Assembly (NCBI GenBank): GCA_008632985.1
Contig: QPGO01000017.1
Location: 248,001-312,000 of the forward strand
Origin: Psammoneis japonica
Taxonomy: Eukaryota
Direction: 5' to 3'
Length of the DNA: 64,000 bases
Part shown: one piece after another, positions 5,957 to 33,901 of the stretch
Numbering within the stretch: the stretch's first letter is position 1
Layout of the letters: each line of letters begins with the position of its first letter
Made by a program: the position numbers and the translations under genes
Notes under the pieces: generated by a model
Database searches by the model: none
What the model was told of the DNA's origin: nothing
What the model saw: the letters and a program-made list of their open reading frames with translations, nothing else

Positions 5957-5958
5957 AA

Positions 5959-8765
5959 GGAACAACATCCACAGATCCCGAGATGCACATTTGGTGATTC
6001 TCCATGTTCTGTGCCAGCTCTCTCCACTTGAGGACACTTGCAACAATGTGAAAATTGGCCTTAAAAATGTGGGTCACCCACAAGCAGTGCATTTTGTCAT
6101 TCCTGGGCTCTTTGAATGTTGTCACATTGACAATGTCCTTCCATCAATCATGCAAACAACCCCACTTCAAAGTGCAGCTCATCAGATTGAGGCAAATTGC
6201 CAACAAGGTCTGTTGCATTTGGCCCAAGAATTCTTTGCTTGATGAAGGATGCCCTTGATCATCTTGATCTTTTATGTGAGGTGCAGGCATGTGCCAGATT
6301 TCAAGGAGGTTGATGTAGATTCAGACCACATCTTGAGTTTGGAAAAAAGAGAGGCTGTCAAAAGGTGACTCTGGACTGCGGGAGGAGTGCATCTGCAGAT
6401 GTTGGGTCAGCAAAGAGGTTGCCTCATTCAACTGACCTGTTTTGCACTCTCCATCAAAAATTGGTTCAGCCATGAATGCATTTCTTTTGCACCCTGGGTC
6501 TGCAGATGGGGGAGGGACAGTCAGTGGAGCACCTTGGGCTTGACCAAAATGATGTTCGTTGTGGGACTGCAAAGCTGCTGCATCATCTTCTGGAGCATCA
6601 TCAATGGCCCAGTTCTGGCATGTCTTGGGATCCTCATGTGGGTGCTCAGGTGCCTGAATGTTCCCAATGCCAGAGTCTTCATGATGGTGCTTGCAAGCAT
6701 TTGTCTTTTGGGAAACTCGCTTGGTTTCTTCTGCACAGCGCAGGTTGTGAAGAACTGTTGCCTTGGCCTTGGAGAGTTTTGCATCTTCCAATTCAAGTTC
6801 AGCAACATGAGAGTCTTGTTTTTTGTCTTGATGTTTTTGACTTTCTTTTGCAACCACTTGGCGGCACTCAGGACATGCCTTGCACAAGCAGCTGTGCATT
6901 CCTGTGTCATCGTGGGAAGCAAAAATGAGTCAGACAATTTGTGCTTAACTCAAAGGATGGAAGGAACCATGTCCATGCAGTTGCAGAACATTGGCGCTGT
7001 CCTGGATAGAACAAAAACTTGTTTTTGGAGATTTGCCAGCTCAACTGACCATTCAGGTTCTTTGCACCTGTGGCACTTCTTTGCTGTGGAAAGAGATGAC
7101 TGGAGCATGTTGTGGTCAAGTCATTCCACCAGTCAGTTGTTCGGAGCATCAGATTGGAGCAGTGCCTCTGATCAAGCAAGGATGTTGCATCCTTCTGCTG
7201 GAGGGCCCACAGCTTCCAGGTGTGTGGCAACATGCTTGCGGGAGTTCGCTTGAAGGTTTCAGAGCTGAAACCTGGGCAAATCTGCCAGGGGGTTCCCAAA
7301 CAAAGCAAGAGCATCAAAGTTCACAAAATGAGCTCTATGATTGGAACAACATCCACAAATCCCAGGGTTGCACATTTGGTGATTCTCCATGTGCTGTGTC
7401 AGCTCTCTCTACTTGATGCTTGCAACAATTTGAAAACTGGCCTGGCAAATGTGGATCACCCACAAGCGGTGCATTTTGTTGTTCCCAGAGGCTCTTTGAA
7501 TGTCATCACATTGATGATGTCCTTCCATTGATCATGCAAACAACCCCACTTCAAAGCGCGTTTCATCAGATTGAGGCACATTGCCAACAAGGTCTGTTGC
7601 ATTTGGTCCAAGACTTCTTTGCATGGCAAAGGATGCCCTTGATTGTCTTGCTCTTTTGTGTGAGAGTGCAGGCATGTGAGAACTTCCAGTGTCCAAGGTG
7701 CAACCCAGACTTCAAGGAGGTTGATGCAGATTCAGACTGCACATTGAGTTTGGAAAGAAGAGGCTGTCAAAAGCTGACTCTGGACCAGGGAAGGAGGAGA
7801 AGGAGTGCATCTGCAGATGTTGGATCAGCAAAGAGGTCACCTTGTTCAACTGACCTGATTTGCAGCACCCTTGTCCATCTGAAATTGGTTCAGCCATGAT
7901 TGCATTTTTCCTTTGCACCCTGGGTCTGCAGATGGGGGAGGGACAGTCAGTGGAGCACCTTGGGCTTGACCAAAATGATGTTTGTTGTGGGACTGCAAAG
8001 CTGCTGCATCATCTTCTGGAGCATCATCAATGGCCCAGTTCTGGCATGTCTTGGGATCCTCATGCGGGTGCTCAGGTGCCTGAATGTTCCCAATGCCAGA
8101 GTCTTCATGGTGCTTGCAAGCATTTGTCTTTCGGAAAACTTGTTTGGCTTCTTCTGCACAGCACAGGTTGTGGAAAACTTTTGCCTTAGCCTTGGAGAGT
8201 TTTGCACCTTCTAATTCAAGTTTGGCAACATGAGAGTCTTGTTTTTTATCTCCATGTTTTTGACTTTCTTTTGCAACTTGGTGGCACTCAGAACGTGCCT
8301 TGCACAAAGCAGTTGTGCACTCCTGTGCCATCGTGGGAAGTAAAAATGAGTCAGACAATTTGTGCTTAACTCAAAGGATGGAAGGAAACATGTCCATGCA
8401 GTTGCAGAACATTGACATCATCCTGGACAGAACAAAAACTTGTTTTTGGAGATTCACCAGTTCAGCCAACCATTCAGGTTCTTTGCACCTGTGGCATTTC
8501 TTTGCTGTAGAAAGAGACAACTGGAGCATGTTGCAGTCAAGTCATTCTGCCAGTTGGTGGTTTGGAGCATCAGATTGGAGCAATGCCTCTGATCAAGCAA
8601 GGATGTTGCATCCTTCTGCTGGAGGGCCCACAGCTTCCAGGGGTGTGGTGACATGCTTGGAGGAACTTGCTTGAAGGTGTCAGAACTGAAACCTGGGTAA
8701 ATCTGCCAGGGGTTTCCTGAACAAAGCAAGAGCATCAAAGTCCACAAAATGAGCTCTGCAATTGG
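5959..8765. repeat. Tandem duplication of ~1.4 kb inside the LINE (copy A ~5959-7345, copy B ~7343-8765)
   Basis: Both copies begin GGAACAACATCCACA.ATCCC and end CACAAAATGAGCTCT..ATTGGA, and share translated blocks such as DSGIGNIQAPEHPHEDPKTCQNW. Confidence 0.9.
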
Positions 8766-11700
8766 AGAGGAGATCCTGCACCCAAAAGCTTTGCACCCAC
8801 AAAGGTCAACAGCAGACAGGGCTCCAGGAGTGGCCAATGCACAGCCCAAGAACCTTCTAGATCCTCAAAAACAGGTGGAAAATTCAAGGTTTTGTGTTGA
8901 CAATGCATGACATCTGACATGTTAAATTGTTGAGCCACCATGGTGATCAAAGAATCAGAATTGTGACAAAAGTTGGCGTCAAAATCACCAAAAAGCATGG
9001 CTTCCTGGTTCTGTTCATCCCCAAAAAGTGCTCCAGAATGTGGGCAAGGTTGTGACAAAAGGCACGTTGTGGGTCAGGATTGGCTTGCCACCCTTGCTGT
9101 TGAAGTGAAGCCACCTGTTGTGCATGAGCAGTGGTTTTTCCTGCTGCCAATGAAGAGCAAGAACATGCACAACAACAAGATGCAAACATCACTTGTCAGC
9201 CGTGTTTTCCACAAAAAATTTGGATTGACCACCTCCCACCTCCCAAGGGGCTCTTTGAGTTGGGGGCAATGCCGTGCTGATGGGGAGTTGCATGACAGCA
9301 AAGATGTGCCACCCAGTTTGCGCAGAGCAGTGGAGGAGTCGTGGAAGACAAGCAAGCAAGTCTGCCATGATGAAGGGCTCATTTTGCTGCAGCAGAGCAA
9401 CTCTGATGGACTTGATGCTGTGTTGTGTCCAAGCATGTCTTGGACAAGCCAACAACATGTTGGCTTGAACTTCTGTTGCTGCTTGGGCACAATCATTGAA
9501 TTCTCTGCTGCACAAGTCAAAGGAGCACTGTTTGCATTAAATGCACACAGGCAAAAATGTGATCTGGATGTTTGGGTTCCATTTGATCTCCAACTGGTTC
9601 ATTGGCAGACAGATCAAAACAATCAATGATGCAAGAGGGGGGAACTTCATCCGGACAACAAATGGGGCCCCTGCTGTGCAGCAGGGTTGGCTGCAGTGGA
9701 AGGGGCTTCACCCCTCATCTTTGAGCTGTGCCACCTCAAAAGGAGACTTGAAAATGGACAAAAGTCTGCATTGTGGAAAAGAGGTGGGTTGGATGACTGG
9801 CCCCTTCTTGGAGAAATTTGCAGCACCAGAGTCATCAAGATCAGCATCATGCATGGTCGTGTTGTTGGGAGGTTTGGTGGTGGAAGACCCAGCAGGAGCA
9901 GAAACAGCAGCTCTCTTGCAGTGAGGCAATGCAGGAGCTGATTGAGCTGCTGGATTGGCAAGTGACTTGTGAATGACAGGCTGAATGGTGGAAACAAGAT
10001 TTGCAATGGATTCTTGTTGCATGAGCTCCAGAGCAGCAATGCGTTTGTCTTGCTCTTGTTGATTCTTGAGCATGAGTTGCTTCAACTCTGCAATTTTGTT
10101 TGTCTCAGAGGTCAGCTCCAACATTGGGGCAGCACCAGGGATTGCTGATCTGGGAGCATTCTGCAGAACTTGGGGACATGTCTGAAATCCACTGTGGACT
10201 CCCACACTCTTGGGAACTGGAGGATCAACAGACTGAGGTTGCTGCCATGGGGGGCTGTGGAGCCAGTTAGAGAAATGTCAGAGACATCCAGGGATGCCCA
10301 GCTTTGGATGCTTGTGCAGGTGATGGACTCAATGGTGTCTGACATGTTGTCATCAGTGCTCAGAATCATGTGACTGGGGTGTCCAACTGAGGGAACAGCA
10401 TCAGCTGGCAAATCATTCACCCAACTTTGAAGGTTGTCCAAAATGTGTTTCTTGGTTTGGCAAAAAAGTCCTTGTGCACAAGAACATTGTGCCTCAAAAC
10501 AGAGACAATGCACTTGGATGGCATGACATCAAAAACACCTGGCACTTGCTTGATTGTGTCCGACATGTGGAAGGAGACATTCTCCATGTGGCGCAACATC
10601 AGAATGACATGGGTCTGGGCAGATGTCTCATGTTGTGCTTGCAAACGGCTTTGTCAAACTCAACCGGTTGAGTGTGCCACCAATGGGGAAAAAATGAGAA
10701 CTAAAGGTTGCTCTTTTGGGACCTCCAGCAAGGCAGTGATCATGTCTTTTGTGCTGTCTTGGGCAGCTTCAATGGCACAGAAGGTTGGTTGCAGTGAATT
10801 GTCCTTGAGACAAGCGGCAGATTGGATGACAAGACAGAAGGGAGCACGTGAACAGCTTCAAGGAGGGGGCATTGCCACAAGTCATTTTTGCACCACATCC
10901 ACCGGGTGATGCTTCAGCAAGCAATCCATGAGGAAAGCAACACGGGAAAGATCAATGGCAGTTTTGTCCCGTTGATGCAAGCAAATGAAAATTCTGTTGT
11001 CCTTGAGAACTTCATTGACAAAGGGGATGTTCTCAATGTCCAACAAGGACAGAGAAGTGCAGATGCGGTGAGCAACAACAGAGGCAACAAGATCCACAAA
11101 TGTGATGGACAACAAAATGTTGCAAATGAGTGAGACCAGAGGTTCACTCAATGATGTTCACATCCAGAATTTCTGATCCACAGTTTGAAACAATCAAAAT
11201 TTTATCCATGAGAGGGTCCTGAGATGCTTTCTGTTGCAGGGTGTGAAGAATCGCAGTGTGACCCATGGCCGGTGTTGTGGAGGTGTTGTCATCAGCAGAG
11301 GCAAGTTCAAAACAATGAGTTGTCTCCTTGAGCACAGAGTGTTGGGTTTTCCTGACCCAGGGCCAGCCTGTGGCAGCAGGGGAGTCATCATGGTGATGGC
11401 TGTTTGGTGCAAAAGACATGCAGAATTCCACCTGGAAACTGCCAATGTGTGCTTGCAAAGAAAAGCACTGCACCTCTCTGGAGATGATCATCTGGCAGAA
11501 AAGAGACATTCTGACACTCAGAAACTGCACAGAACAAGTCTTTCAGAGCCAGCTGCAGCTGGAGTTTAATGTCTTCCCCTGTGCTCATTGCATTTGCCAT
11601 TGTTGTTGTTGTTGTTGTCAACACAATTTTGATTTCTTTTCATGCCCAGCTTCTTCTTCAAATGTCATCAAAGCACAAGTTTCCAGTGTGGCCAACAATG

Positions 11701-12258
11701 TCAGGAGCTCTTGAAGCTCAAACTCTGTGCTCACACTTGGCTCTTCCCACCAAGCTTTCTACAACAACCTTGAGCTTGATTGGACTTTTTGAACAATGTC
11801 AATGACGCAGTCTTGGATGGCCTCTAAAGTCTCTAAACAACTCAAGTCTCATGTGTGCTTGGTGAACACCCTGGCAGGAAGGAGCCACCTGTGCTGCAGC
11901 TTGACACAATGGCAGCATGAAGCAACATGGATTTCCAACACAATGCCAGACCTCATGACAAGCTCAATTTTTGCTGCTGGCTGCTTGGTTGTGCTTGGAG
12001 TCAAAGCACAAGTGCACTTGTTTGAGCTCACAAGATCAAGCAAAGAGAGTGGTGCACCCCTGGAATGAGAGTCTCTGCTCCTGGGTTTGGCAAAGGCAAA
12101 CAAGCTTTTCATTTTCAAGAGTCACGCAAAATCAAATTTGTGGATCAACCCTCCAATTGATGATCCATTCTGCTTGTGACTCATTTTTGGATGAGCCCTT
12201 TGACCAGTTTGAAATGTCTCATCCCACAGCCTGTTAAACAAATGACATCATTCTCCAA

Positions 12259-12547
12259 TTGAAAACTGGCAGATGCACAGTCATGAAGACATTGCAGACA
12301 TGAAGCCAATTCCTCATCAATTGATGCAATCAACTCCAATTTAAAGAGACTGCAAAATGTTCAGAGTCCCTCTGTTGAGTCATGCTGAAAGTCATCTGTT
12401 CAATGCTCAACACCAATGGAGAACCACTTCACTGCATGCTCACAATTTGTGAACTCACTTCACTGTGACAACTGAAGTCTCCATCAGCCCCAACACTCTG
12501 GTGAATGTTGTCAGCTCTGGTTCTGACACTTGGCAGTCAGGTGTTTT
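12259..12547 (+). repeat. Copia 5' LTR (hypermutated)
   Basis: Aligns with 24058-24300 (GAAAACTG..AGATG.ACAGTCATGA; CTCAACACCAATGGAGAACCAC; GCTCACAATTTGTGAA.TCACTTCACTGT); carries an extra internal segment of ~55 bp; lies just upstream of gag. Confidence 0.7.
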
Positions 12548-15017
12548 GGTGCACTTCCTCTGCACTGAGCAAGACAGAAGAGATGACCAGTCATCATGGT
12601 GTTTTCTCTGACACCTGCTCAGGCCATCACAGGCATTCTTGACTTTGTTGAAAAGGCACATCAAGCCATTTACAACAAGGCAGTCAAGACAACAATGGAA
12701 GCACAGGAGAAACCACTTCAATTCCTCAACAAGACCTCAAAGATTGAGCTGCCAAGAATGGTTGGGATGAAGATGATTTGTTCAACAAAGATTGTGTCAG
12801 ACACCACCAATTTGTTGACATGCTGTGGTCAGATTGAATTGGACCTCATCTGCAAATGCAAGTGCGTGCCCATCAACAAACCGGCAAGGCCAGCACAAGA
12901 CACAAGGATGCTTTGCCAGCTTCTTGTGAGCACACTTTCAGAAGAAGGCAATGCCATGATTCTGGTCTGGGAAAAGCAGCACAAGATTGTCAAGAACAAC
13001 AAGACACATCTGTTGGGAAACCTTCTGTTGAAGGCAACAATTCAAGAAAGTTGCTGGACACCAATGTGACTGCAATGAGCATCAAGATGAAGAAACTCAG
13101 CAATCTTGACAAACATCTCATCGCAGTGTCAAGTGACATTATCAAATTCAGCCAACATGTGCTGCTCTTGTTGCAAGCTCTCATGTCCCACAGACAATGG
13201 AAGACCTCCAATTGAACTTGTTCAAGGGATGCCTTGCAGCACCCAACAAAACATTCATTGATTGTGTCTGTTGCAAGCACAACAAGCATGACAAAGGAAA
13301 TGACATGGGTCCCAACGAACTGGTGAACCTCACAGTCAACAAGCAAAAAAAGATGGACAGTTGAGATGCAGGAATGGAGTGCACCATCCCTCAAGGAGGA
13401 GAAGATCCTGGCTCTAGAAGCAAAGACAGATGCCATCAAGAAATCATCTTGAGGCAAGAAAACCAATCCCAAGCAGAGTGGAAATCCCAGGAGTCAGAAG
13501 AAAGGAGGAAAAAACTTGTGGTCCCAAGCCTGGTTGGTTGAAGAAGGACAATAGACTCATGAACAATCAACTTCACAAGTGCCAATGTTGGAACAACCGG
13601 CCAAAATGTCATTGTCACAAGGACACGGGCAGAAAGTGTGATGGAAAGTGGCCCATCCACAAGCCATTGGCATGGAAGGGAAAGCCTTTGTTGCTTGGAA
13701 ACTTGGTGGTTCAAAACATCCTCCAGAAAAGAACAATGAGCCAGCAACAACCAAGAAGATCCAAAAAGACCTCAAGTCACTCAAGCCATGCATCAGAAGC
13801 TCTCACCACTGTTCTTGCAGATGAGATTGAGTCCTCTGACAAAGAATGGCTGGTGGAGCATGGTGACAAGCCAAACTGTGATTGGAGAATCCAGGGTGTC
13901 ACCATCTGCATGATGTTGTTTGCTGCATGGTTTGCAAGTGCCTTGCAGCCATGCCACTGTTGCTGCCACCAGTGCAATTTGTGTGGACCGCTGCAGCCTG
14001 CCGCTGGATCTCCATCACAGTTCATGAATTTTCAAGGGAAGTGGCTGCAAACACTCTTTCAAATTTGTCACTGGAGCTCATGTGTCACTGACAATTGTTG
14101 TTTTCTGTCTCATTGTTTCTTTTGGCAAGGACCCCAACAACCCCAATCTGCACTGTGTTCTATGATCCAAATGTTGGAAATGCGGACAATCAATGTGGAA
14201 GGCCCAGTCAAGCATGCAATGGATGGGAAAACAAATTGGTTGATTTGTTGAAAACAAGATCAATCAACTGTGCATGCAGCCAAGCAATCTCAAAGAGGAA
14301 GAATCAAGTGAGTCAAGGAACATCAAGGAAGATCAACAACAAATGTTGAACATGGTGCATTCAATGGGCATGATGGCAGCACTGGCAATCCCAGCAGTGT
14401 GCATGACAGCCCAGAATGATGCTCTCAAGCAAGAAAAACATGACTCAATTCAACACAGACTTGGGACCTGCAGGTGTGGACAACTGATGCACTGGATGTG
14501 CACCCAATGTGCAGCAGTGGACTTTGCAAGCAAGCTCATTCCAAGCAAGCAAGCTGCAAAAGGATTTGGGTCAAGAACAACAGGAGTTGTGATGGGCACA
14601 TTGATCTGGCCATGGTGTGATGACAATGGGGCTGCTCACTTGTTTAAGATCCCAAACTTGCACTGAGCACCCAATGGCAAAAGGTCCATCTGCCAAGTCC
14701 CCAACACTGGGTCAAAACACAAAAGGATTGCAAGCCAATTGAGGGTGTGGGAGAGAGCACAGACTCTGGGCAGTGCACCCAATGCTGGAGCCAGAAGAAA
14801 AACAAACTTGCTGTCCCCCCAAGCCCAGAAAGAAACAATGCAACATTTAATCTTGCTCCTGGTGATCAAAAGTTTGAAGCCTTCTGCACTGAATGTGGAG
14901 TCAATGATGCCATTGAAGACAACAATCCTGTCAAAGCAAGTGAGGTGAACATTGTGAGCAAAGAGGATGATGATGAGGAACAAGAGTCCAGTGATTCAGG
15001 GTTGGCAATGCACACTT

Positions 15018-15139
15018 GGCAGATGGTGGATGCTGGGTGGTGGGAAGTGGATGGCAGATGCTGGATGGTGGATGGTGGATGCCAGATTGTGGATGGCAGA
15101 TGGCGGGTGCTGGATGCTGGATTGTGGATGGTGGATGCC
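15018..15139 (+). repeat. 7-bp minisatellite (GGATGGT/AGATGGC variants)
   Basis: Roughly 17 degenerate tandem units, e.g. GATGGTG GATGGTG GATGCCA GATTGTG GATGGCA. Confidence 0.8.
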
Positions 15140-15642
15140 ATGAATCCAATCAAGGCTGTCTCATGACATGCCAAGTGAGACAAGCACACCTCAGGGTCAG
15201 AGGACAACACTCCAGTCTCCACTCTGTTCAATCTGGATGGACCATCTGAGGATGCAGGCAGAGCTTGTCTGCCTCAAGCCACAACAGACAAGGAAGATCA
15301 GCAAAGAGAAAAAGCATTTGCAGAGTTGTTGAGACATCATCAGAAACATGGGCATGGCTCATTCTGGAAACTGCAAATGATGGCAGAGCAGGGAGTCATC
15401 CCAAAACACTTGTCAAAATGCAGTGCACCTGCTTGCTCCTCATGCACACTTGCCAAACCAACTGAGCACAAGTGGAGAGACTGAAACAAGAAGGCTTGTG
15501 ATCCACAGAGCCAACTCAACCCAGACAAGTGGCATCAGTGGACCAAATGGTCTCACCCACACCAGGATTGATTTTGCAAATGGCAGGGTTCCCAACAACC
15601 AAGCTGAGGCACAAGTGCATGACAGCATGTGTCGACCAACCC

Positions 15643-16476
15643 TGACTTGTTCCAGACTCAGGTGGCATGCACATGCCCCTTTTCACACACAAAAAAAGTT
15701 TTTTGTGCTTCACACAACATCTTTTGCATTCAATTGTGATGATCACATTGGTGGCTTTCAAGCAAAATGAACAGATGAAGTCCAAGCCAACTAACAGCCC
15801 AAATGGCCACAGCTTTTGGTGACCATGACAGCCGGCTTTTTTGACCTTGTGGAAAATTGAATGATGCTGCAAGGCCCACAGCATTTTGCACAGTCTGTGT
15901 CATGATCAACAAGAATGAAAATGCTTGTTGCAGGCTGCAGCACAGCAAAAAGAAGTCCAGTCTGTCAGCAACAACAATTGAGTCTTGTGCCTCACTCACA
16001 ATTTGCCTTCAAGGACCAAATTTTTTTCATTGCCATGTGCATTTCCTCTGTGGCATCAACTGACACAAGTGTGTCAGTCATTTGTGCCAACAAATCAGTG
16101 AAACAGGGTTCAAAGTTGATGCCACTGTGTGGGCCGAGCTTCACTTCTTCTCACATCTGCCAAAACTTGTCAGTTGGTGAGTGTTTTGTTGAGTCTGTTG
16201 AGGTTAACTTGCACCCACATGTGTTGGCAAAAGACAGTTCATGTTGCACTTAAGACCAAATGTTTTTACACAAGAACATTGATTTGTGCCTTTCTGATCA
16301 CAAGTTGTGCATCAGAAAAGTGAGCTCTCATCTCATGGCGCCATTTGGCAATCAATGACTCAATCCATCCTTGGTTTTGAATGCATGGGCACACACATGA
16401 GAACTTTCTGCATGTGCCCATGACAACAAATTTGAAAATTGCGTTGCATGCAAAAACCCAAGTCTGGAACAAGTCC
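15643..16476. mobile_element. Non-autonomous TIR DNA element (MITE-like, 834 bp) inserted in the Copia integrase
   Basis: Perfect 15-bp inverted repeats GACTTGTTCCAGACT (15644-15658) / AGTCTGGAACAAGTC (16461-16475); flanked by ACCC on both sides; splits the integrase motif VDQ...(Y/C)VHLQKT. Confidence 0.75.
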
Positions 16477-19162
16477 ACCCCAGTTTCAGCTGTGTGCATT
16501 TGTTGCAAAAGACTGCAAGCATGGAAGAGATGTCAGAAGGCAAGAAAGCTTTTGAGTTGATGGCAAAAAATAATTGCAGAGTCAAAATCCTTGCTTGCCA
16601 TGCAGACAATGGGGCATTCAAGGCAAAGCAATGGGTCAAGCATGTTAAGACCAAGGACAAGGCCTGACATTTGCAGGCATTGATGCACACCACATGAACA
16701 GTGCAGCTGATCACTGCATCTGCAAACTGCAGGAACATGCCCACAGCATGCTCATGTGTGCAAACCAATGATGGCCCTCAAGTGTTGCCGCCAACCTGCG
16801 GCCATGTGCTGTCCAAATGGCAAACAATGCAGTCAATGAAATGCCCAGCTTCCAAAATCCAAACACTGCACTCCAACTCAACTGCACACACAAACAGATG
16901 TCTCAAGCAACCCCCCAAGCACTGAATTCCCTGTTTGGATGCCCGGTGCACGTGTGCTGGATGACCAGCTGCAAACAAACCACCCATTTTACAAGTGGAG
17001 GCAATGCTCGAAGGTCAGAGTGCACTTGGGGACAAGCCCAATGCACAACAGGAAAATTGCCTTGGTTCTCAACAGAGCAGCAGCACATTCAAGTCCCCAG
17101 CTCCATGTGAAGTGTGACCCCAGCTTCCACATGATAAAACAGGACAAGTTTGTTTCAATGTGGCAAACAAAAGCCAGATTTGTGAGTCAGAGGGAGGCGA
17201 ACAAACCAACCCAAGGCAAGAACAAGATGGCACTTGCACCTGAAGCCACCAACAAGCAGAGCATTCCTCAGCAAGAGTGGGCAATGCCTCCCTCAGAGGG
17301 AGCATCAAAGAAGAGGAAGTTTGACAAGAACCCAAACCATGCCAACATTCTCAACAAAACACTGGAACCACCCAAAGCCAATGAGCAACTGGCACAGCCA
17401 AATGAACAGGCAGAATCACTGGAAGTGCTTCCACAGCAGGAGGGTGAGTCTCACCCTCCCAGAGTGCCAAGGACACCAGATGTGACAACAAGATCAGGGC
17501 AAAAGAGCCGGCCAGTTGAGTGGCTGGCACAAGCAATGACAGCTGAGCTTGGTGCCAATGCCAAAGGGGACATTGAGAGAGAGACATTTTCACCAGCAGC
17601 TGTCTTTCCATGTGACAAATTGCCCACATTGGATGACACTGACCCTCTTCCAGCACATGAAGCTTCAACAGATCCCGACACCATGTGCGTGCACCAAGTG
17701 ATAAAATGACAAGATTGCAAGGAATTTGTTGAGGCAGTGTGCAAATGAGTTGAGGCACAAATGAAGAATGGAAATTTTGCCACAGCTCCAAGATTGATGG
17801 TGACTGACAAGAGAAGGAGATGCTTCCAGCTGCATGGCAGATGAAATGAAAGTGGAACGTCCTGACCCACACTGTCAAAAAAATGGAAGGCAAGATTGAA
17901 TGTGGACAGATGAGAATGAGAAAAGGGGCTGGCTGTGGCAAAACATGTGCCCCGGTTGCATCCCAGAACTCAGTGCACATGCTGCTTGCCATGGGAGCGG
18001 CACACAATTGGCACACCAAGCAACTGGATTGTGTGCTGGCATTCCCAGCATGAAGTGTGTGTGCAAATTCCAAAGGGGTTTGAAATCAACAAAGGAGATT
18101 CAAAAGACTTTGCACTGCACCTGCATTGGAGCCTGTGTGGACAGAAACAAGCCGGGCAAGTGTGGAACAAACACCTGGCTAACAAGCTGACAAAAGACCT
18201 GGGCTTGTTGGTCCAGTCCAAGGTTGATGAGTGTGCACTTCACCAAGGCAAAACAATGCACTTGCTGTGTGCCAACAATGGTCTGTTGGTGGGACCTGAT
18301 GAGGAAGAAATTGATCAAATCATTGAAGAGGTGAAGGCCACCAAACTGGACATCACAGCAGAGGGAGACATGCAAGACTTCATCCTCAGCATCAATGTTG
18401 AAAGAAAAAGTGGTGGTGCCATGCATCTTGTGCAACCACACCTCATTGACCAGATGCCAAGGGACATGAAGCTAGATGGCAATGATGTCAAGCCCAAGGA
18501 CACTCCAGCCTCATCCTCAAAGTTGCTGTCCAGGCATTCCAACTCAGAGCCCTTTGATGGACACTTCAACCATGGATCAATCATTGGCAAACTGAGCCAC
18601 AACTTCCAGCAGACCCTGGAATGGAACACAGTCAAGCACTCAAGTGGTCAGAACCCCATCTGAAGGGAACAAGAGACAAAGGCACAGTGCTTGTGCCTCA
18701 AAAAGGCAAAGACTCAGAAGTGCATGTCAATGCCAACTTCAGCGGCAACAGTTGGGGCCCTCAAGATGCAGCCGCCAACCGCAACACTGCCAGGTCCAGA
18801 CATGGACGTGTTGTCATAATGTGTGCCGGATGTCCTGTGCTTTGGAAATCTCAGCTGCAAACAGAAACTGCATTGAGTTTAACCGAGAGTGAGTGGTCGA
18901 CCATCACATGAATTGACAAGTGCAGCGCCTTTTGTTGTGGTGGAATTGCTCAAGGAAATGAAGCATGACAGCTTCCCAGCACACACCTGCAAACCAACGG
19001 TTCATTGTTGAGTGTTTGAGAACAACAGCGGAGAAGCTCTAGAAACTGCAAAGACCCACAAGTGTCGTCCAAGAACCAAACATTTGAGTGTAAAGCCGCG
19101 CTGCTTCAGGGATTGTGTGTCAAGGGGAGAAATGTCCACCCATCCCACAGACACAAAGGAGC

Positions 19163-19529
19163 TGCACTATGCTCGAAGAACGAGTGTAAACGAAAGTAGA
19201 ACGAAGTTCGAAAAGTGAAAATTATGAGATTAAATTTTGCTCTGTGATTTTTGGTTTCTCCGAACGAGTTCTCAATGGCCTAAAGCTTCTGTACTGTTTC
19301 TACAGACAAAAGGCCTTTCGGAGAATATGTTCGTGACAACAGATTGTCCGGATACGATTGCCATTGACACGTAAGATGTCAACATCGTCAATCGATCGTA
19401 TTTGCAATTCTCGACATCCGATCAACTCTGTGTGATCGTTCTGTCCTTTGTACGCATCCACGACTGTGGTACGATTGACATATAAATAATATATAATCAT
19501 AAATATGTATATAACAGTCGCATACTGCA
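19163..19529 (-). repeat. Gypsy 3' LTR
   Basis: Direct repeat of 23518-23884; terminal inverted repeat TGCACTATGC...GCATACTGCA. Confidence 0.95.
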
Positions 19530-22500
19530 TTCGCCTCCCTAATTGCACATTAGAGTCATTTGTAAGTGGATTATTCGACGGACATCGACAGTGTCAATAA
19601 TGTCTCCACTTTCACTGTATTGTGCCATTAGCAATGACTGTTGTTGTTTTGTATAGGCAATATAGGGCCGTTCCAATTTCCGAATGTCTTTTGAGAGTGA
19701 CATTGTTTGTTTCTCACTTAATATGTATATATATAGTATTACGTCGAGTATTCTCATTGACGTTCTTGTTGATATGAACACAAGGACTAATTGTCCTGGA
19801 GTAAGTGTTTTTCCTGACATCGATTGTACATAGCATCGTGCCCAGTACTTAATGTACGCTCTTAATTATGGCGTTCACTTACTTACTTGTGGATTTCATG
19901 TAGTTTGGCGGGCTTACTTTATATGCCATATTGCTCTGCTGCACTACCACGTTTCATAAGTAATAATAAACGATGGTCAAAGATATTATGACCATTTCGT
20001 CTTGATAATCAATCCTGTGATGGTTATGAATTCCATTATGGATTTTTTTTTTGTACTTCAACCATCTATCAGTTGGATTTTAATCGTTATTTGGACGTTT
20101 CTTTCTGACATACCGGTGTTATTTTGTCATTCCGAAGGCACTGGTTTCGTGCACTAAGTGGATAAATGTCCATTTTTCTTTTCTTTTTCTAGATCTTTGG
20201 CACATCTCGTGTGTCGACATGATGCACATTTTAATGTCTTGCCTCGTACATTGTACAATACAACCGTACGGGTGTTGTGAGATTGTCTTTTGCCAGTGTG
20301 AAGTGGATGCGCACAATGTGTGCCAATCTGTCACTGTTTTTTCCCAAATCGTCCTTTAAAAAGGCGATTTTATCCTTGTGACATGAGCATTTTTCGATCT
20401 CGCTCGCCTCCACGAAAAGTGTTCATATGACATGTCGCGTCCGACAATTTGGAGGGAATGTCTTTGTCCCGTTTTAACGGCAGGACATTGTCGTAGGATT
20501 CAATTTTCTACAGCAAGTCGGCTGATCGCGTCTGTCGCGACGATGTTCGCCTTGCCTTCATTGCACTCTAATTTGGGGCTGAAGTTGTCAACGCACGACT
20601 TTGTCCGTTGTGTCTTGTGATCTGCACATGTGTAAATCTGTTGGCCAAACAGCACATTTCGGAATTTTGTGAGTGTTTTCACTGTGGACAGAAGTTCTTT
20701 TTTCCGTTGCAACGCACAACATTGAAATCCGTGCATGATGACAACGCAGTTTTTGATTTGATGCGCTCCACATTTTCGGAGACTTTTCGTTCCGCACTTG
20801 TGCTTTTGCCGTTTGACCTTTGTTGAGGTGAATTTGGCCAGCATTGTGCAGGAGATCGTTGAGACTGCATGTCTCGACAACAGTGGCGCATGACAACGAG
20901 ATGTCGCAGTGTTCTTTGCGTTTTTCTCGTGTTGCGATTGCTTGAATCGCCTCCATTTTCTTTGCAATCGATTGCATGTCGTTGCGCACGGAAGTCTTGA
21001 CAGTTCATTTCAAGTTAAACAGTGAAGGACTTTTGTTGTCAACCTTCTAAGCGACTGTTCCAGTCGTTTGAATGCCGCACTAAGCTGTCACTTGTGCAGG
21101 TGACATTTTGAAGTTACTTTTGTCAGGCACAAACGATCACATGTGGTCGTTCTGACAACTTCAAACCTGTTGTGAGTTCACTCAAGTGTTGCACAAAAAT
21201 GTCTGGGGCTCTGTGGATTCTCATTGGAAGTCCGTGGCACTCATTTTCTCCCCACGGCATGATTTTCGTGTGAGCACGACGTGTGCTTTTTTTGTTTGAC
21301 ATGGTGGCATTCCATGTTTGAATCAAATGGATTGCATGTGTGAAACGTTCTTGCTTCAACAGTGTTTCCTGAATGTTGGGTAAAGGATGCACCACCTGCA
21401 TGAACCTCACACTGAGCTTCTGAGTGTCGGACGCAGTCGAACTCGACCTGTTTTCTTTGGACAATGAGTCTCAGAGCGACTCATTCAGAGCAATTTCATT
21501 CTCAAGACTTCAATCTTTCATGACAGGTCAAACTCCTTTTGATTGGACGCCTCCAAAGACTATGACAGGAGAAGGTTCTCACGCGTCGTGGAATCGCGTC
21601 AGATTTTCCACGATGAGATCCACTGGTTCTTCCCATGCATTCGTCTGAGGAACTTTTCAAAAAGATTTCAACCTCTTAAGAAGAAGATTGAGTTGGTTGT
21701 GTTCATTTGGGTTAGATGCATCGCCGTAGTTGTCACTTGATTAGGATCGATGACGTGACAATGTGAGTCGAGGACCATTGGTTCCGTCATTAACTCCATT
21801 CACGGCGTCACATTTTTCAATGTGATCGGTTTTCAGCTTGAAAACATCGGCATCGAAGAGTGCACGAACATTCTTCATAGGGCAATTGCTTCTTCCCATT
21901 TGATTTCTTCATTTGCGTAGTCCAATGTGACTTGCAGGACTGGACATTAAGTCGCGTCCCATGATCATATCATTTGAACCTGAAGAAAATTTGGTGTTTT
22001 CAACATGTGCTGTTTGAATGTCAGTATGCCTTAAATTTCGCATAGTGAGAACTGAATTCGGTGTTTACTATCAGTCGTAAAGAGCTCACCCTTGGTTTCC
22101 CAAGTTTTTGGTGGCGGATTCTTGTGTTCTCAACTTTCGCACGAATTTGCGCAAAATTATGGTTGACGATGTTCCGTTATCGATAGGAACACGTAGATGC
22201 TTTTTTCTCTCCTTTCCCAAGGAAGCATTCATATAAATGATGACTCCTGGACTAGTGTGAATTATTTCTGCCTTTTTTCTAGGCTTCCTAATATCCAGCA
22301 AAGCAAATAATTCGTGAATAGACCCAAATTATTCTTCGGATTCACTCTGGATCATCCGATCAAATTGGTATTTTTCTTCACTGAGGGTATCAGAATCTGT
22401 TTCTTTGCCCTTATGCTCTTTTTCTTTGTTCGAGGAACTCGCTTTGAGTATTTTTTGAACCGCCTGATCAACCATGACGTTCAACTCTTTTTTGCGAGCG

Positions 22501-23517
22501 GCATTTTCGTTATCGCGACGCGACCGCGTGCGATTGCCATTTGAACGGCGCATTTTTGGGTCTCTTTCAGAGTCACCCTTGCACTCTTTTGCTAGTTCAT
22601 TTTTAGAATAGCTTCAATCCGTGATGCAGGTGTTCTTTTTTCAAAGATAAGACCTTGCATTCACTTTGGATTGTTCTGGCACCATGTGGGAGACCATTTT
22701 TGGAACCAAAATTGGAACCTTTTTGATTGTGGAATCAACTGCGCTATCAGAGCCTGAATTGATATGTTTTTTTGTCACAGACGTCCTCGCCGACCTCTAG
22801 ACGACTCAAACCTCAATCAGCTCGTCAAGGGTATGATCCAGTGGTTCAATATTTTGGACAGTAGGCTGATGCTGCCATCCTTGCGGTGCGAGTGATAGCT
22901 GATAAATCAGCGCTCGGTTTCCCGCTAGATTCGACTTAGAATCCATCTGAGGGTCGTATAGACTCTCATCGTTGACCTCTTGGGTCTATCAGAGGCTTTC
23001 TTGCTGTTGAGCGGCTCTGGTTTCTTCAGGTCGTCTCGAAAATAATTTCCCTGATTCTGAAGTGCATTTCCTCGGAGGACATGAGTTATGAGACGCTTGA
23101 GGTACTTTCCAACGATTCCCTCTTGCTCCTTGGACTCGAGGATCATCGATTCGGTCTCAAAAAACTCTCCAATAGTCTCCCCTTGCATGGTAGACGTATT
23201 TCTCGGATCTGATCGACTCGGAACTTGCATTCTCTGCAACCATGACTTGGTGTAGATTTTTTGATAATGCGGTGTACTTGAGAGCCCTTGATCCTTGGGT
23301 GCTTGGAATAGACCGTATTAGAGCGAATCCTCTTGTTTGGTAGACGAAAAACAGCGTTCCATCTTGAGGTGCTGCTCGGCTTGAGCTTCTTCCGCTCGGA
23401 AATCGATTCCAGCAGAACTGATGCGATTCGTTCCTGTTTATAGAAGAATTTGCAAAGGCACATTAGTTAAAATTTTCATTTTCCGTGCTTTTTACCTTCT
23501 GTGGTGTGTATACACAA

Positions 23518-23884
23518 TGCACTATGCTCGAAGAACGAGTGTAAACGAAAGTAGAACGAAGTTCGAAAAGTGAAAATTATGAGATTAAATTTTGCTCTGT
23601 GATTTTTGGTTTCTCCGAACGAGTTCTCAATGGCCTAAAGCTTCTGTACTGTTTCTACAGACAAAAGGCCTTTCGGAGAATATATTCGTGACAACAGATT
23701 GTCCGGATACGATTGCTATTGACACGTAAGATGTCAACATCGTCAATCGATCGTATTTGCAATTCTCGACATCCGATCAACTCTGTGTGATCGTTCTGTC
23801 CTTTGTACGCATCCACGACTGTGGTACGATTGACATATAAATAATATATAATCATAAATATGTATATAACAGTCGCATACTGCA
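23518..23884 (-). repeat. Gypsy 5' LTR
   Basis: Direct repeat of 19163-19529; upstream of gag on the minus strand. Confidence 0.95.
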
Positions 23885-24057
23885 GAGCAACTTGCCGATT
23901 GTCTTGCAAAGCCGGTGAGTGCAGATGCACTTCTCTGGTTGCGTCCGCTGGCAATGGGGTGGCAAGCCCACTGCATTTCTACTGGGTGTTAAGTGCGATG
24001 TCCCAAATTACAGGTTCGGCGTCTGGCTGATTGGCTAGATCATGTCAAAGGGCAAAA

Positions 24058-24300
24058 TGTTGAAAACTGCGGTAGATGTACAGTCATGAGGACGTTACTG
24101 TACGGACACAAGCCAATTCCTCTGTTGAGAGCTGAAAGCGATCCGTTCAACGCTCAACACCAATGGAGAACCACTCCACTCTGAATGCTCACAATTTGTG
24201 AATTCACTTCACTGTAACAACTTAACTCTCTATCAGCCCTAATGCTCTGGTGAACGTTGTCAGCTCTTGGTCTGACAGTCAGTAATCAGGTATTTTAACA
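24058..24300 (+). repeat. Copia 3' LTR (little mutated)
   Basis: TGTTGAAAA...ATTTTAACA ends, preceded by purine-rich AAAGGGCAAAA; follows the end of RNase H; homologous to 12259-12547. Confidence 0.7.
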
Positions 24301-24608
24301 GCGGCCGGTGCTTGAGCAGGAGCCCATTGCCCTAATAATCAGAATATTCTGATTGTGGGCTCCTGGCTTGAAGTCTGTTGCTCTTTACAAAGCACTTTAC
24401 AGTCAGGAGCGTGTGAAGCAACCTTGCCGTATTGTATCAAAATTAGTTTTATGTTATTATCCACTTCGATGGCATTGAGTTTTATAACTGCACTGTAACT
24501 AGAAGTAGGCACTGATCTGTACGGTAGGAGGCGTCTACTCGCTACAGCCAGGGCACTCACGCTGCAAGCTCGAATCTTTTACGGTGCGCTCCCGCCTTCG
24601 CTCATTCG

Positions 24609-26615
24609 TTAAAGTTCCTCCACCGTAACGAATCCCCCAGCGCCTCCCGCACCACTTCTATCTCTGTGAAGCTGAAATGCCCAATCTAATTGGTCCATGA
24701 TAGGAATACACATTTTGCGCATTACCTCACCGCTTTCTGTTTGAGGCAACTCCTTTCTCATGCTTTCCATCTCTCGATACACTGCTTCGAGCCCTTGGAC
24801 AATACGCGCCAACTTCTTGCTGTTCTGGCTCATTCCAATGGAGTCTAGTTTCCGCAAACCATAAAAATGCCGAAGTAATTCCGATGAGCGACTGAAAAAG
24901 GTATGGAGTCTCCTTTTGAAATCTTCAGGAAGAGAATCAACAACCTGACGAGTGTCAGCATCTGTCTGAGAATCGATTGCCATTTTCTTTGTCAACGCAG
25001 CTAAAAGCTCTTGCCCTAGCTTGGGGGGAGGAAACGAATTATTCTGATAATTTGTCTGCGCGGTCCCACCATTGTCAAGGAGAGGAGCCGCCATAGTTTG
25101 CAACTTGGACGCCATGGCCTTTGCGAAAATGGCCTGTCGTTTCAACCTTTCTTCTTCCGATTCGTTCGAAGATTGCGCCCCCGTTCGTCGTCCGGAGTAG
25201 TATGCCTCGATGTTTTTCAGCGTCAGTTTCTCGTAAGCATCTTCTTCTGTGACGCCAAAGCCCTGAACGTGATTGGCATCATCTTCTGACGCATTGGCGT
25301 ATCCGACCAAACGCTTCATTTCTTGATGCACCCCGCCAAGCACTTTTGCATCGTCATCGTCTTGTATTGTTTGATCTACACTTTTTCGCGCAACCTCCAT
25401 TAGATTACTACCGGCTACAGCTTCGTCAGGGTTCAAGACCATTGCCCAATGCCGATTGTATTTTTTCACCACACGAGCACCTTTGCCGTCATCAGCAGTG
25501 TTTGGCGGAAAGTAATCTTTCTGTCCCTCGAGCAAATGTCCGCGCTCGGTTTCAGCCGTAGAAGAAAGATCAAACTGACCAACGGCCAATCGTGTTCCCC
25601 ACTTGCGTGCCAGGGCGCCTTGACCGTTTCCACCTTTGAGTTTGGCATCATACCGTGAAAAAATATCATCGCTACCGACTGCGGCCGCGCGAGCATCCTC
25701 TTGCTCCAAAGACTTCGCCGCCTTGGCCGCATCCTTTCCTGGGGCACCATGTTGATTCCGAGCTGCAGTACCTAGTCGGCCACGATCACGGTGAAAGTAT
25801 TCAGACTAAGAAAACCAAAAACATAGAAAAGGGTTAGGGTCACATGTGAGAAGCTACTTTCAAATTCGAAAGAAAACTCGACGGCTTACCTCCAAGTACT
25901 TTCGCCAGAACTGTTCATCACTTAGCTCAAGAGGGACTTTCTCTTCGTAAGCCTTGTGCACAGCCGGATATAAAATAAAGATCTGTCTCATTTCCTCCAC
26001 TCCCAGAGTGACACGCCCTTGTAGGGGCAGATATGACTGCATCAAGGATGAAGTGCCTGCTTTAGTCGTCCCGCATATCTTTGCGTACTCTTCTTCCAAC
26101 ATGCTTTGGTGCGTCCGCCAAAAGTCATCTTCAGAGACCGTTTTTGTTTCAGAGACAAGATACTGATGCTGAGCGCGAAGGTCCGGGTTCGACGCCAACA
26201 ATGTCGATCTCGTTACAGCCAGCGCGGTGGCATCCATTTCACCAAAGTCGGTAGTTATGGGCTTGGGCGGAGTCGACATTTCAGAGTGACGCCGTTTCTT
26301 ACCACCAGACGCCTTGAGGCGTTGCAAACGTGCTGTGACATCCTTTCGAATTCTGTCTAACTCAGACCTTGACTGAAACGTGAAAGTAAGACTCTTTCCA
26401 TTCTTGAGAACAAGCTTTAAAAGAGCTTTGGGGTGAGAGGCAGGACTGACTTGGTGCTTCGACACGTCCTGCCACGGCACTCCGACAGTTGCGTTCGCCG
26501 ATTTGAAGCTCAGCTGATCAGAAGCTAACAAGATTTCACCTTGTTGTTTCTTATAGAGAACCTGAGAATAGGTGGAGAATGTATCGAGCGCTGGATTCGC
26601 CGCCGCTACAGTCAT
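24609..26615 (-). CDS. GTF2H1: General transcription/repair factor TFIIH p62 subunit (PH + BSD domains), 640 aa, 2 exons
   Basis: Exons 26615-25890 and 25805-24609; GT-AG intron 25889-25806 joins EQFWRKYLE|SEYFHRDRG in frame; N-terminal PH (HQVSPASHPKALLKL) and BSD repeats (SEDDFW; IFILYPAV..AYEEKVP..LSDEQFW). Confidence 0.9.
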
Positions 26616-27310
26616 GCCGTCAAGGTATTGTTTTGGTTGCAGTGGCGGTGGTGCTCATTGCTCCATGTTGGCCGCGGTGTGCGGCGTGCGCGATGATTGC
26701 TTTGTTATTTTGGCTGTGATGAATACACCTTTTCAGTTGCAGATTTCGTTCCTAGACTCTTTTTACCAAAATTTTGTCTGCGTCTCTGAGTGAAACCTCT
26801 TCGAGAGATAGTAAATTTATGTTACCAAAAATTATGGTTATAATGAATAACGATAATAATCGATACTGGAGTCTTATTAGGAGAAAAATTGTAGATAAAG
26901 CTATTGAAGTTAGAGAAATTAAGATATATATCAATGTAGAAAATAATAGAAAGGAATGTGACTCTAGTACAGTACGCAGTGTACATACGGTAGGGCCCAT
27001 ACGTCGGATGGATACAGTACCGACTGACCGCTTTCCATTCATTTTCCCGCGAAAAATCAGCGAGCGAGCTACCACCGAGGCGACGGCGTTCCCACCATTG
27101 TGCGAAGCCTCGAAATAAAAGCGACTTCGCTTATCGACTCGTGCAAAAGAAGACGCAGCAAGGAGGCTACTGGATCGAAAGGAAAAGCTCCGTCAAAATA
27201 GGAGGACTCGACTGAAACTAACGGAGGTCCAGTATCGTCCAGTTTCGCTTCCGCATATTGCAATCGCATGACAAGAACGGCAAATCGCTGTTCGTGTGGA
27301 CTTGGTTTCG

Positions 27311-28162
27311 ATGGTACCCGATCCGTACAAGGCGTTGGGAGTTTCACATGAAGCTTCTCAAAGTCAAATTAAGGCGAAATTCCGAAGCTTGGCTCTTCAA
27401 TATCACCCGGACAGGTTGACGCGACAAAATGCTTCTCCTGAACAAGGCGAAGCTGCCACTAAGAGATTCTCTGAAATTGCAGCCGCGTATCAATTGCTCT
27501 CGGACCCAAAACGAAAGAGAGAATACGACCATGTGTACAAGTTTGGAGGATACGACGACACAACAGATAGTAGACATTCATCAAGACAACCGTATCAACC
27601 ACAAAGCGGTCACGCAAGTTCGAGCCAAAGGGACTCCCACCTGCGCAATGAAAAGCGAGAAAGGAACGGCATTGGCTACACAATCTTTGACCCCATCTCA
27701 TTTATTTGTTCACAAGGAAGGAATCAGTCGGCTGCAGTAGCAGGAATTCAGATTCCATCTCGAATGCATCTAGGAAGGCCACCACCAGGTGGAGGAGTGC
27801 GGTTTGCTTTCTCATTAGGACAGTACTCTACTTCGTCATCGGGAGAGACAAGGCATGTATCAAAAACAACTCAATTTGTAGAAGGAAGGAAATTTAGCCG
27901 AGTAGAAACTACTACGATCCATGCCGATGGACGAAAAGAAATCATTATTGAGGGCGATGATTACATTGAGCGACGCTATTGTAGGGCACCTCGTAAAAAG
28001 AGAGCACATAGTGGTTCGCCAAACGTTCGAAGCTGTTCCACCGGCGAGGATGTCACTCAACAGGAAGAAAATAGCTTACCATGGTATGTGAGTGCTTGGC
28101 ATGGAATTCGCGAAAAGGTATCCATGTGTCATAATCCCTGTGGGATAGCCTTGGCTCACTAA
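27311..28162 (+). CDS. DnaJ/Hsp40 domain protein
   Basis: N-terminal J domain DPYKALGV...LALQYHPD...AYQLLSDPKRKREYD; ATG at 27311. Confidence 0.9.
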   Translation: MVPDPYKALGVSHEASQSQIKAKFRSLALQYHPDRLTRQNASPEQGEAATKRFSEIAAAYQLLSDPKRKREYDHVYKFGGYDDTTDSRHSSRQPYQPQSGHASSSQRDSHLRNEKRERNGIGYTIFDPISFICSQGRNQSAAVAGIQIPSRMHLGRPPPGGGVRFAFSLGQYSTSSSGETRHVSKTTQFVEGRKFSRVETTTIHADGRKEIIIEGDDYIERRYCRAPRKKRAHSGSPNVRSCSTGEDVTQQEENSLPWYVSAWHGIREKVSMCHNPCGIALAH

Positions 28163-28325
28163 GGCTAGAGTAGCCGCAAAAAGAAATAGTTGACTCCTTA
28201 GACCTTGATTTCAACGAAAATCAAAACACATCATCCGTAGTACCGTATAAAATTGAAGAGTCAAACAGGATCGTGTCGTCTCGTTCAGGGGACGGTTCAG
28301 TGAAACTTGCTGCTTTCATGCAACT

Positions 28326-28943
28326 TCAAGCATCCTTCTCTGGCCAATCGTAAAGTTCCAATAGCACGTCCAATAGCTCCGGAAATGGACTGAAGAAATG
28401 AGAACGTCCGGGTAGCATATGATACGTATCTGTCAAGCCTAAACCATCCCTTATTCGTTCTGCCTCTTCCAACGGAATGAACGGGTCGTTATCAGAATGA
28501 AATTGATGCCACACCTTACAATTCGCTTTCATGCTCTCAAACAGATAAGGATTTTCTTCCTCACCACCTCCTTTTGATTGGGGATAGTAACCAGATAACC
28601 TTTTGCCTGCGTCTCCTAAATCACTGTATGTTGCAGCGACAAGAATTGCTGCGTGCACTTTTCTAGTTTCAGTGTAGCGTAATGTTGCTTGGGCTCCGGA
28701 ACTGTGTCCGACGATAACTATTTTCTCCGGAGAGTCTGGCGCACACTTGGTTGCAAGAGATTCGATAAAGGGTATCCAAACTTTCCTCTTGGCGCAGTAT
28801 GGATCTGGAAAGTCCTCACATAAACACGGTATACCTCGTTGCGTAAGTTCGTCGAAGAGATGGCCGTACCAATTCGATTGCCGAACATTGGTGCATCCAT
28901 TCCCCGGACAGATTATCACTGTAGGTAATCCAGATGGCTTCAT
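28326..28943 (-). CDS. RBBP9/YdeN-family alpha/beta hydrolase
   Basis: PGNG..NWY, nucleophile elbow GHSSG, HSDNDPFIP, GRSHF; first ATG at 28943. Confidence 0.9.
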   Translation of the reverse strand: MKPSGLPTVIICPGNGCTNVRQSNWYGHLFDELTQRGIPCLCEDFPDPYCAKRKVWIPFIESLATKCAPDSPEKIVIVGHSSGAQATLRYTETRKVHAAILVAATYSDLGDAGKRLSGYYPQSKGGGEEENPYLFESMKANCKVWHQFHSDNDPFIPLEEAERIRDGLGLTDTYHMLPGRSHFFSPFPELLDVLLELYDWPEKDA

Positions 28944-33873: not shown

Positions 33874-33901
33874 TATCCCCTGTAACGGAGACTCAAGAAG
33901 A

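Follow-up and report, generated by a model that had tools for sequence, protein, structure and literature searches.

A Copia LTR pair beside the p62 gene of a pennate diatom suggests episodic TpA conversion of silent DNA that spares gene rims

Hypermutation that turns TpA into TpG or CpA has been measured in the rhizarian alga Bigelowiella natans, where the main text of the report describes it for two integrated viral regions and in some lines only, with a de novo rate ca. 1000-fold above background in mutation-accumulation lines; the same text proposes, without showing it, an ADAT-type enzyme for the hypermutation and describes TpA-poor transposon domains in the genome (10.64898/2026.01.13.699255). 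In the diatom Phaeodactylum tricornutum, the available sections of another study describe CoDi Copia elements as CG-methylated by DNMT5 and marked with H3K9me2/3 and H3K27me3 (PMC9998398). Here we analyze a window of 64,000 nucleotides from Psammoneis japonica (QPGO01000017.1, positions 248,001 to 312,000; C18:248001-312000 in our contig labels), in which a dead Copia element with two unequal long terminal repeats (LTRs) lies beside the gene for TFIIH subunit p62. Positions below are those of the window unless a contig label is given.

We propose that silent DNA in this genome undergoes episodic TpA conversion that spares the rims of genes, and we give this explanation as a whole a probability of about 0.65. 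A search of mostly openly accessible papers returned no diatom report of the TpA signature, which is in print for one rhizarian alga only. The novelty of the locus lies in the border rule, with its limits, and in the structure of the tracts.

The Copia element and its unequal LTRs

Across positions 1-19162 and 43501-64000 the observed/expected ratio (o/e) is ca. 0.05 for TpA and 0.15-0.24 for CpG; the gene block at 24301-43000 has 0.62 and 1.01, respectively. In 1-kb bins along 254 kb of C18, TpA has a bimodal distribution, with 99 of 254 bins (ca. 40%) below 0.2. The parts of the host Copia element and its neighbor are:

12226..12231, plus strand: left target-site duplication (TSD), ACAGCC, decayed, with two CpG->CpA changes relative to the right copy
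12232..12551, plus strand: 5' LTR, fully converted, with 0 TA and 0 CG in the aligned parts
12552..19162, plus strand: broken gag-pol body, with an RVT_2 match within 17920-18660
18763..19162, plus strand: CpG-retaining stretch, 12 CG in 400 bp against an interior mean of 1.75
23885..23962, plus strand: last part of the host RNase H frame that was interrupted at 19162; it has lost TA and kept CG
24057..24300, plus strand: 3' LTR remnant with two deletions, keeping 9 TA and 4 CG that the 5' LTR has lost
24301..24306, plus strand: right TSD, GCGGCC, differing from the left at the two CpG->CpA positions
24609..26654, minus strand: gene for TFIIH subunit p62, reading toward the 3' LTR; its 5' limit is that of the stop-to-stop frame

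An earlier note on this DNA had reported that the gene-side LTR reads TA or CG where the distal LTR reads TG or CA, and all 12 motifs that it quoted lie at their places and hold 10 differences. We count 13 such sites and none in the reverse direction (sign test p=2.4e-4) in the columns that can be aligned (39 + 180, i.e., 219). Nine of them are TA in the gene-side LTR only (24073, 24079, 24096, 24215, 24231, 24240, 24283, 24291, and 24296) and four are CG (24093, 24144, 24151, and 24255); three TG/CA swaps and 15 other differences make up the remainder. Reading the pair as a before/after experiment captures this 13:0 asymmetry, yet the 3' LTR is not a clean “before” copy, as it carries some converted sites of its own and ordinary mutations, i.e., 5 private substitutions (vs 7 in the 5' LTR, excluding a misaligned stretch by a deletion) and one insertion besides its two deletions.

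Both LTRs very probably belong to one Copia insertion because the element is colinear, its pol frame continues across both inserts, and a decayed target duplication flanks it. The element matches a full copy on contig C68 in five colinear blocks, and its body is colinear with PF13976/PF07727 polyproteins along the length of these. Intact Copia polyproteins align in order over 14.3-19.16 kb and resume at 23.88 kb, with residues 1240-1322 of P0122 mapping to 18904-19161 and residues 1319-1347 to 23876-23962. The order of parts is that of Ty1/Copia, i.e., an RVT_2 reverse transcriptase (RT; PF07727, E=3.8e-8) with the integrase upstream and RNase H downstream, between two direct LTRs of the TG...CA type, although the 5' LTR ends in TG instead of CA and the 3' LTR lacks its start. 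The earlier note had allowed for sister elements, citing an extra segment in the 5' copy and the lack of a TSD. That segment is normal for the family since both LTRs of the C68 copy have it, so the 3' LTR is the deleted one, with two losses of ca. 50 bp each, one of which took the LTR start; the 5' LTR begins at 12232, not at 12259 as previously placed. A TSD is present as ACAGCC/GCGGCC, exact at 4/6 positions and with CpG->CpA at the other 2, which would arise by chance with a probability of 0.0012 for 6 bp or ca. 0.016 across lengths 4-6.

That the change ran from TA/CG to TG/CA, and did so after insertion, is virtually certain, as the earlier note had held. TG and CA occur at one and the same site in different copies, so TA or CG must have been the prior state, and at these sites the gene-side copies on C21, C27, and C58 have retained TA or CG (judged by eye for the first block). 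Comparison of copies fixes the polarity at 10 sites and makes it likely at 1 more. Within the element (12232-19162; TpA o/e 0.05, CpG o/e 0.11), conserved tyrosines, defined as Tyr in at least 70% of at least 8 among 30 intact relatives, are kept at 0/31 positions: 13 have become Cys (TGY), 11 His (CAY), and the remainder lie in shifted frames, while Pro, Gln, and Trp are retained at 89-96% in the same comparison. The Tyr site at 23900 in the RNase H end reads TGT. A family consensus of TG/CA had been named as the refutation of this direction. TG or CA is indeed the majority at 7/9 core sites among 11 other copies, yet TA/CG is the older state, and we reject the majority consensus as a polarity test as most copies are converted.

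Short-read contigs of run X1, which may be the source sample of the assembly, differ from it at 0, 0, and 1 letters over 11500-12413, 18000-19188, and 23859-26000, so the LTR pattern is not an assembly artefact; run X2 does not cover 11500-23115 and is uninformative there. The p62 gene, identified by its PH_TFIIH and BSD domains and with named relatives in pennate diatoms (Seminavis 59%, Phaeodactylum 56%), has an 84-nt intron at 25806-25889, and 308 bp separate its stop codon from the LTR end.

Two further features lie in the Copia body. A short GGATG-rich tandem repeat with very high X1 contig depth occupies 15017-15137, and the pol frame is split by an insert that looks like a miniature inverted-repeat element, part of whose left end matches window positions 245-312 in reverse:

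15644..16475, no strand assigned: insert of 832 bp with 15-bp terminal inverted repeats, converted like its surroundings

Conversion tracts in a young nested family

The host pol frame is also cut by a younger element, which belongs to a family with ca. 480 LTR candidates genome-wide and 4-bp TSDs:

19163..23884, minus strand: young nested non-autonomous Gypsy-like LTR element, cutting the host pol
19163-19529 and 23518-23884, minus strand: its LTRs, 367 bp, with 2 differences that are both TA losses
19159-19162 and 23885-23888: its 4-bp TSD, GAGC
20308..22008, no strand assigned: TpA-loss tract private to this copy, with 38 TG and 50 CA and CpG nearly intact

We call it Gypsy-like because an RT_RNaseH remnant, slightly short of the cut-off (E=4e-5), occurs in a sister copy. 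From 20 fetched copies, 16 were usable as full elements (L101 was dropped for wrong LTR pairing; L089, L091, and L097 have no pair within 3.8-6.5 kb), which together with the copy in the window makes 17. Most of the sampled copies sit in blocks that are already converted, and 1/17 lies between two TpA-normal flanks.

The loss of TA is not gradual, as 12/17 copies have a TA-loss tract of 1.5-3.1 kb, each at its own place. Inside the tracts 1360/1906 TA cells are lost (71%) and elsewhere 225/3186 (7%), a contrast that is partly by construction since tracts were defined from TA data, though the map displays them directly; the CG losses are 57/1393 and 46/2142, respectively. Where two copies are hit at the same site they agree on TG or CA in 59% of 4061 cases, with no pair of copies above 80%, and the two members of the 8 LTR pairs in which both are hit agree at 88/158 shared sites. 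The tracts must therefore arise after insertion, independently, and on DNA, and we reject their inheritance from donor copies. TG and CA are interleaved at random (692/1329 neighbors alike, shuffle 675±18), which leaves a single processive pass along one strand unsupported (p=0.19), and they are balanced in the hit LTRs (377:381).

Measured against one little-changed natural copy as yardstick, A->G changes inside tracts reach 36.5% at TA, 2.9% at CA, 1.4% at AA, and 1.3% at GA. The 3' context grades the effect from TAC (0.52; TACG 0.57) and TAT (0.44) down to TAG (0.22) and TAA (0.19). All transitions rise slightly in the tracts (AA 1.4 vs 0.7%, CG 4.1 vs 2.1%), and transversions do not.

Young LTRs are not intrinsically immune, as 35/69 sampled ones are converted, in a sample deliberately enriched by two converted queries (rows L117, the same LTR as L141, and L118, without flank, were dropped). 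Among sister LTR pairs of this family the number of differences ranges from 1 to 26 in 367 sites, according to whether or not a tract ran across the pair, and LTR divergence is consequently unusable for dating insertions in the P. japonica genome; repeat libraries built on consensus sequences will likewise lean to the converted state.

Survival of TpA and CpG beside genes

The earlier note took the LTR asymmetry by itself as a sign of protection near genes. This step is invalid because 8/23 young LTR pairs are strongly lopsided too, and in just 2 of the 8 is the intact LTR flanked by TpA-normal DNA. Lasting protection beside genes is nonetheless probable in our judgment, on evidence from the old host family and an inward gradient.

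In the old family, 4/4 LTR cores beside genes keep 7, 13, 13, and 9 TA, and 10/10 with depleted flanks keep 0-5 (Fisher p=0.001). The gene-side neighbors, 237-689 bp off, are p62, an RF-1/MJ1316 protein, a cNMP/ankyrin protein, and a fucosyltransferase, and three of the four cases are convergent. This count excludes the copies on C54 (the same insertion as C18b) and C58:320508 (another repeat), and the two LTRs on C21 are not treated as a pair given 24% other differences and no clean TSD. We reject an intrinsic protection of 3' LTRs, as three of them in the old family, all with depleted flanks, are converted.

Moving inward from the end of the 3' LTR in the window in 200-bp steps, and skipping the nested insert, TA falls as 8, 7, 2, 2, 0 and CG as 5, 8, 7, 6, 2, 0; on C21 the counts are 14, 6, 0 and 8, 7, 2, and the deep copies on C68 and C18b have 0-2 TA throughout. 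The CG excess of 18763-19162 over the interior (Poisson p=3e-7) belongs to this gradient, as the stretch was 0.4-0.8 kb inside the 3' LTR end until the nested element inserted. A protective halo of the young LTR does not explain it, since none is seen in 22 other copies (2.0 vs 2.5 CG/100 bp, p=0.50). The rim crosses the insertion point, and the CG rim should therefore predate the nested insert, which thus left behind a fossil: a CpG-rich old rim that is now 5 kb from the gene and against which the pace of CpG decay could be measured relative to the age of the insert.

TA falls within one 200-bp step (partly by definition) at 16 domain borders, where CG declines as 8.8, 6.2, 4.4, 2.3. Host flanks are converted as well as elements. 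A dead duplicate of the end of a GPN-loop GTPase gene (C18:217670-218344) has lost 8/9 TA in its first 430 bp. Its final 244 bp have kept 8/11; here 140 bp follow the stop codon of an aspartyl-protease gene and another 100 bp overlap that gene. The intact GTPase copy at C18:208922-209605 provides a true “before” sequence for this duplicate.

Several findings weigh against our explanation. Conversion of young LTRs does not follow flank TpA (8/18 vs 26/50, p=0.78; 68 LTRs with flank), and with hand-picked unique TpA-normal flanks the difference is not significant (4/14 vs 29/53, p=0.13; L137, whose flank is common to L140, was dropped from this test only). Most lopsided young pairs lack a TpA-normal flank, and a lopsided pair is therefore a normal result of a tract edge. 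One young LTR, L121, is converted (4 TA left) at ca. 130 bp from a lipase frame whose reading direction leads away from the LTR. The sample of the old family is small and was found with a TA-keeping LTR as query; its gene-side copies on C27 and C58 are solo or truncated pieces, 70-78% alike; and all four gene-side LTRs are 3'-type ends, with the two certain 3' LTRs alone giving 2/2 vs 0/3. At the LTR pair itself, 24073 and 24240 could be gains in the proximal copy, and the C68 and C18b full copies match at just 4/6 TSD positions, so the TSD length is not independently fixed. The two families would be reconciled if tracts fall randomly on silent DNA in the short term and only gene rims survive many rounds.

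Among the lopsided young pairs the 5' LTR is the hit member in 6/8, too few to judge. Beside L121, L116, L139, and L110 the nearest 200-300 bp of an otherwise TpA-normal flank are TA-poor, resembling leakage of repeat-induced point mutation (RIP), and such near flanks also occur beside some intact LTRs, so that flank leakage is not established. Among the matches listed by a de novo search for LTR pairs, which covered 254 kb of C18, there was no other usable pair. The same Copia insertion with identical flanks is present at C18:595-602 kb and C54:286-293 kb, as alleles or a segmental duplicate, and the few differences between these copies could date recent events.

Other repeats in and near converted blocks include degenerate tandem arrays (window 45899-48425; C18:387-393 kb, with no TA and CpG kept at C18:390-391 kb), a converted inverted-repeat element with 448-bp arms of 89% identity (window 3613-5956), and, after it, a 1.4-kb tandem duplication of 87% (window 5959-8766). 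A coding tandem array at C18:338-344 kb is unconverted, and being repeated is thus not enough for conversion.

Mechanism, rival explanations, and known systems

We picture the history of the locus as follows. One Copia element inserted beside the p62 gene of a pennate diatom, in whose silent DNA the A of TpA changes to G, at the DNA level and on either strand, so that TG or CA results. In the young family, each episode converts ca. 70% of TA within 1.5-3 kb of a single copy and leaves CpG nearly untouched. CpG decays afterward and at a slower pace, most likely because methylcytosine is deaminated; we read the CpG loss this way because Phaeodactylum Copia elements are CG-methylated and this genome holds 27 unclassified PF00145 matches. 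Repeated episodes saturate old elements except for a rim of ca. 150-800 bp by an active gene, which, on the evidence of 4 LTRs, one gene duplicate, and 16 borders, is narrower for TA than for CG. This rim is most likely the edge of the domain of silent chromatin, kept open by transcription of the gene or by read-through at its 3' end. A weak hint of transcription at the rim comes from run X2 (one sample, whose record says “DNA?”), in which one contig skips the 84-nt p62 intron and another matches 23922-24211 exactly, near the reappearance of TA at 23980, though these contigs are strandless.

The likeliest chemistry, to which the TAC/TAT preference points, would be deamination of adenine by an enzyme of TadA/ADAT type that is targeted to silent chromatin, and we regard this as an even call. 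The accessible parts of two studies describe native TadA as dependent on UACG (PMC12296453) and TadA-based editors as favoring TA and TAC, with little overall effect of the following base (PMC8065034). Our searches of the genome for deaminases and methyltransferases, the latter as matches only, found no unusual candidate: it holds TadA-like and ADAT2-like frames (C38:7.2-7.9 kb and C26:119.7-120.3 kb) and two A_deamin loci. Deaminases of these kinds are expected for tRNA editing in any eukaryote, and finding only such housekeeping kinds is another point against our explanation. Clusters of cytosine-methyltransferase matches, several with stops, occur at C297 (5.1-6.0 and 37-40 kb), C301:35.3-36.2 kb, and C10:611-617 kb; those on C297 lie near L034 (C297:18-23 kb), where TpA is gone and CpG intact. 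These clusters may be integrated foreign DNA.

A different chemistry, either error-prone gap filling by a polymerase-eta-like enzyme with its WA motif or mis-repair of a modified T/A at TpA, strikes us as somewhat unlikely. Patch repair would fit the small rise of all transitions in tracts, and a specialized deaminase did not emerge from the genome searches. However, polymerase eta acts on TA and AA alike, and AA is hit 26x less than TA here; the lack of a rise in transversions also goes against error-prone filling, and the 3'-pyrimidine preference fits TadA as far as the two studies describe it (PMC12296453, PMC8065034). It is improbable that genes play no part and that tracts striking repeats at random missed the 3' LTR by chance. 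The private, sharp-edged tracts of young copies would suit such a history, as would the 6/8 strongly lopsided pairs without a TpA-normal flank by the intact LTR and the nonsignificant flank test, but the host element is old (its two LTRs differ by 7% outside TA/TG/CA/CG) and saturated for TA and CG loss across 6.9 kb, and survival at the gene end only, together with the graded CG rim at 16 borders, requires lasting protection.

Distinctly improbable is an equally mutated rim in which selection purges the changes because the LTR has become part of the 3' UTR or terminator of the gene. Its neighbor is of an essential type and reads toward the LTR, and 3/4 gene-side cases are convergent, yet the 3' LTR accepted two ca. 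50-bp deletions, an insertion, and nearly as many ordinary substitutions as its partner (5 vs 7), and selection would need to single out TA and CG. We give very little credence to LTRs from sister elements with differences older than the insertion. Over 180 columns outside TA/TG/CA/CG, the distal LTR is no closer to its partner (13 differences) than to the C68 5' LTR (10), with which it has one transversion in common; copies that arose in a single burst should be about equally distant, and the unbroken colinearity, pol continuity between the LTRs, and matching TSD speak for one element. Hardly credible at all is a gain of TA in the 3' LTR by fungal-type RIP (CA->TA) or changes made in RNA or during reverse transcription. 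TG/CA is the majority state among copies and two of the sites could be gains, but Tyr became Cys or His, TG and CA are mixed at one site across copies, the LTRs of one copy differ independently and on both strands, and host flank and a host-gene duplicate are changed as well. ADAR-type RNA hyper-editing would leave one affected strand and identical LTRs; here TG≈CA, and outcomes within pairs are independent.

The locus sets rules for any mechanism: tracts of 1.5-3 kb, no strand coordination, a preference for TAC/TAT, TpA loss that is independent of CpG loss, and a halt some hundreds of bases short of genes. Tentatively, and at somewhat less than even odds, diatoms may possess a dedicated genome defense that recruits a TadA/ADAT-fold DNA adenine deaminase to silent chromatin and keeps it out of transcribed DNA; every episode would convert most TpA within a domain of 2-3 kb.

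Among known elements, the host resembles Ty1/Copia of the CoDi type in its TG-started LTRs, integrase before RT and RNase H, RVT_2 domain, and 56-58% identity to intact polyproteins of ca. 1350 aa; unlike typical members it is dead, hosts a nested insert, and has a TSD that appears to be 6 bp. As in P. tricornutum, at least in the sections of the study available, a diatom Copia is concerned, and CG methylation would explain the CpG loss and offer a targeting mark; DNMT5 methylation, however, covers CG->TG/CA only, and TA loss here precedes CG loss. With ascomycete RIP, in the portion of the source at hand, the locus shares dense dinucleotide transitions on both strands that kill repeats and are graded at single-copy borders (PMC2973834). 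Yet RIP makes C->T at CpA and so creates TpA, and the diatom process destroys it, leaving the element at a TpA o/e of 0.05 with Tyr turned into Cys or His.

The closest likeness is with the B. natans process as its main text presents it: TpA->TpG/CpA, both strands of nuclear DNA, region-bound, and episodic, meaning some lines only in B. natans and some tracts only in the diatom. In P. japonica, A->G/T->C is restricted to TpA (36.5% vs 1.3-2.9% at other NA in tracts) and affects resident nuclear DNA on both strands in bounded regions. The scale differs, as that text concerns two large single-copy viral inserts and rare depleted clusters, whereas the diatom, a stramenopile, has ca. 40% of 1-kb bins depleted, in LTR retrotransposons and dead host DNA; kilobase tracts, gene-side rims, the 3'-pyrimidine preference, and later CpG loss are not described for B. 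natans in the main text. If a dedicated diatom defense of this kind exists, it would be shared in kind with Rhizaria and would constitute a natural A-to-G DNA editor.

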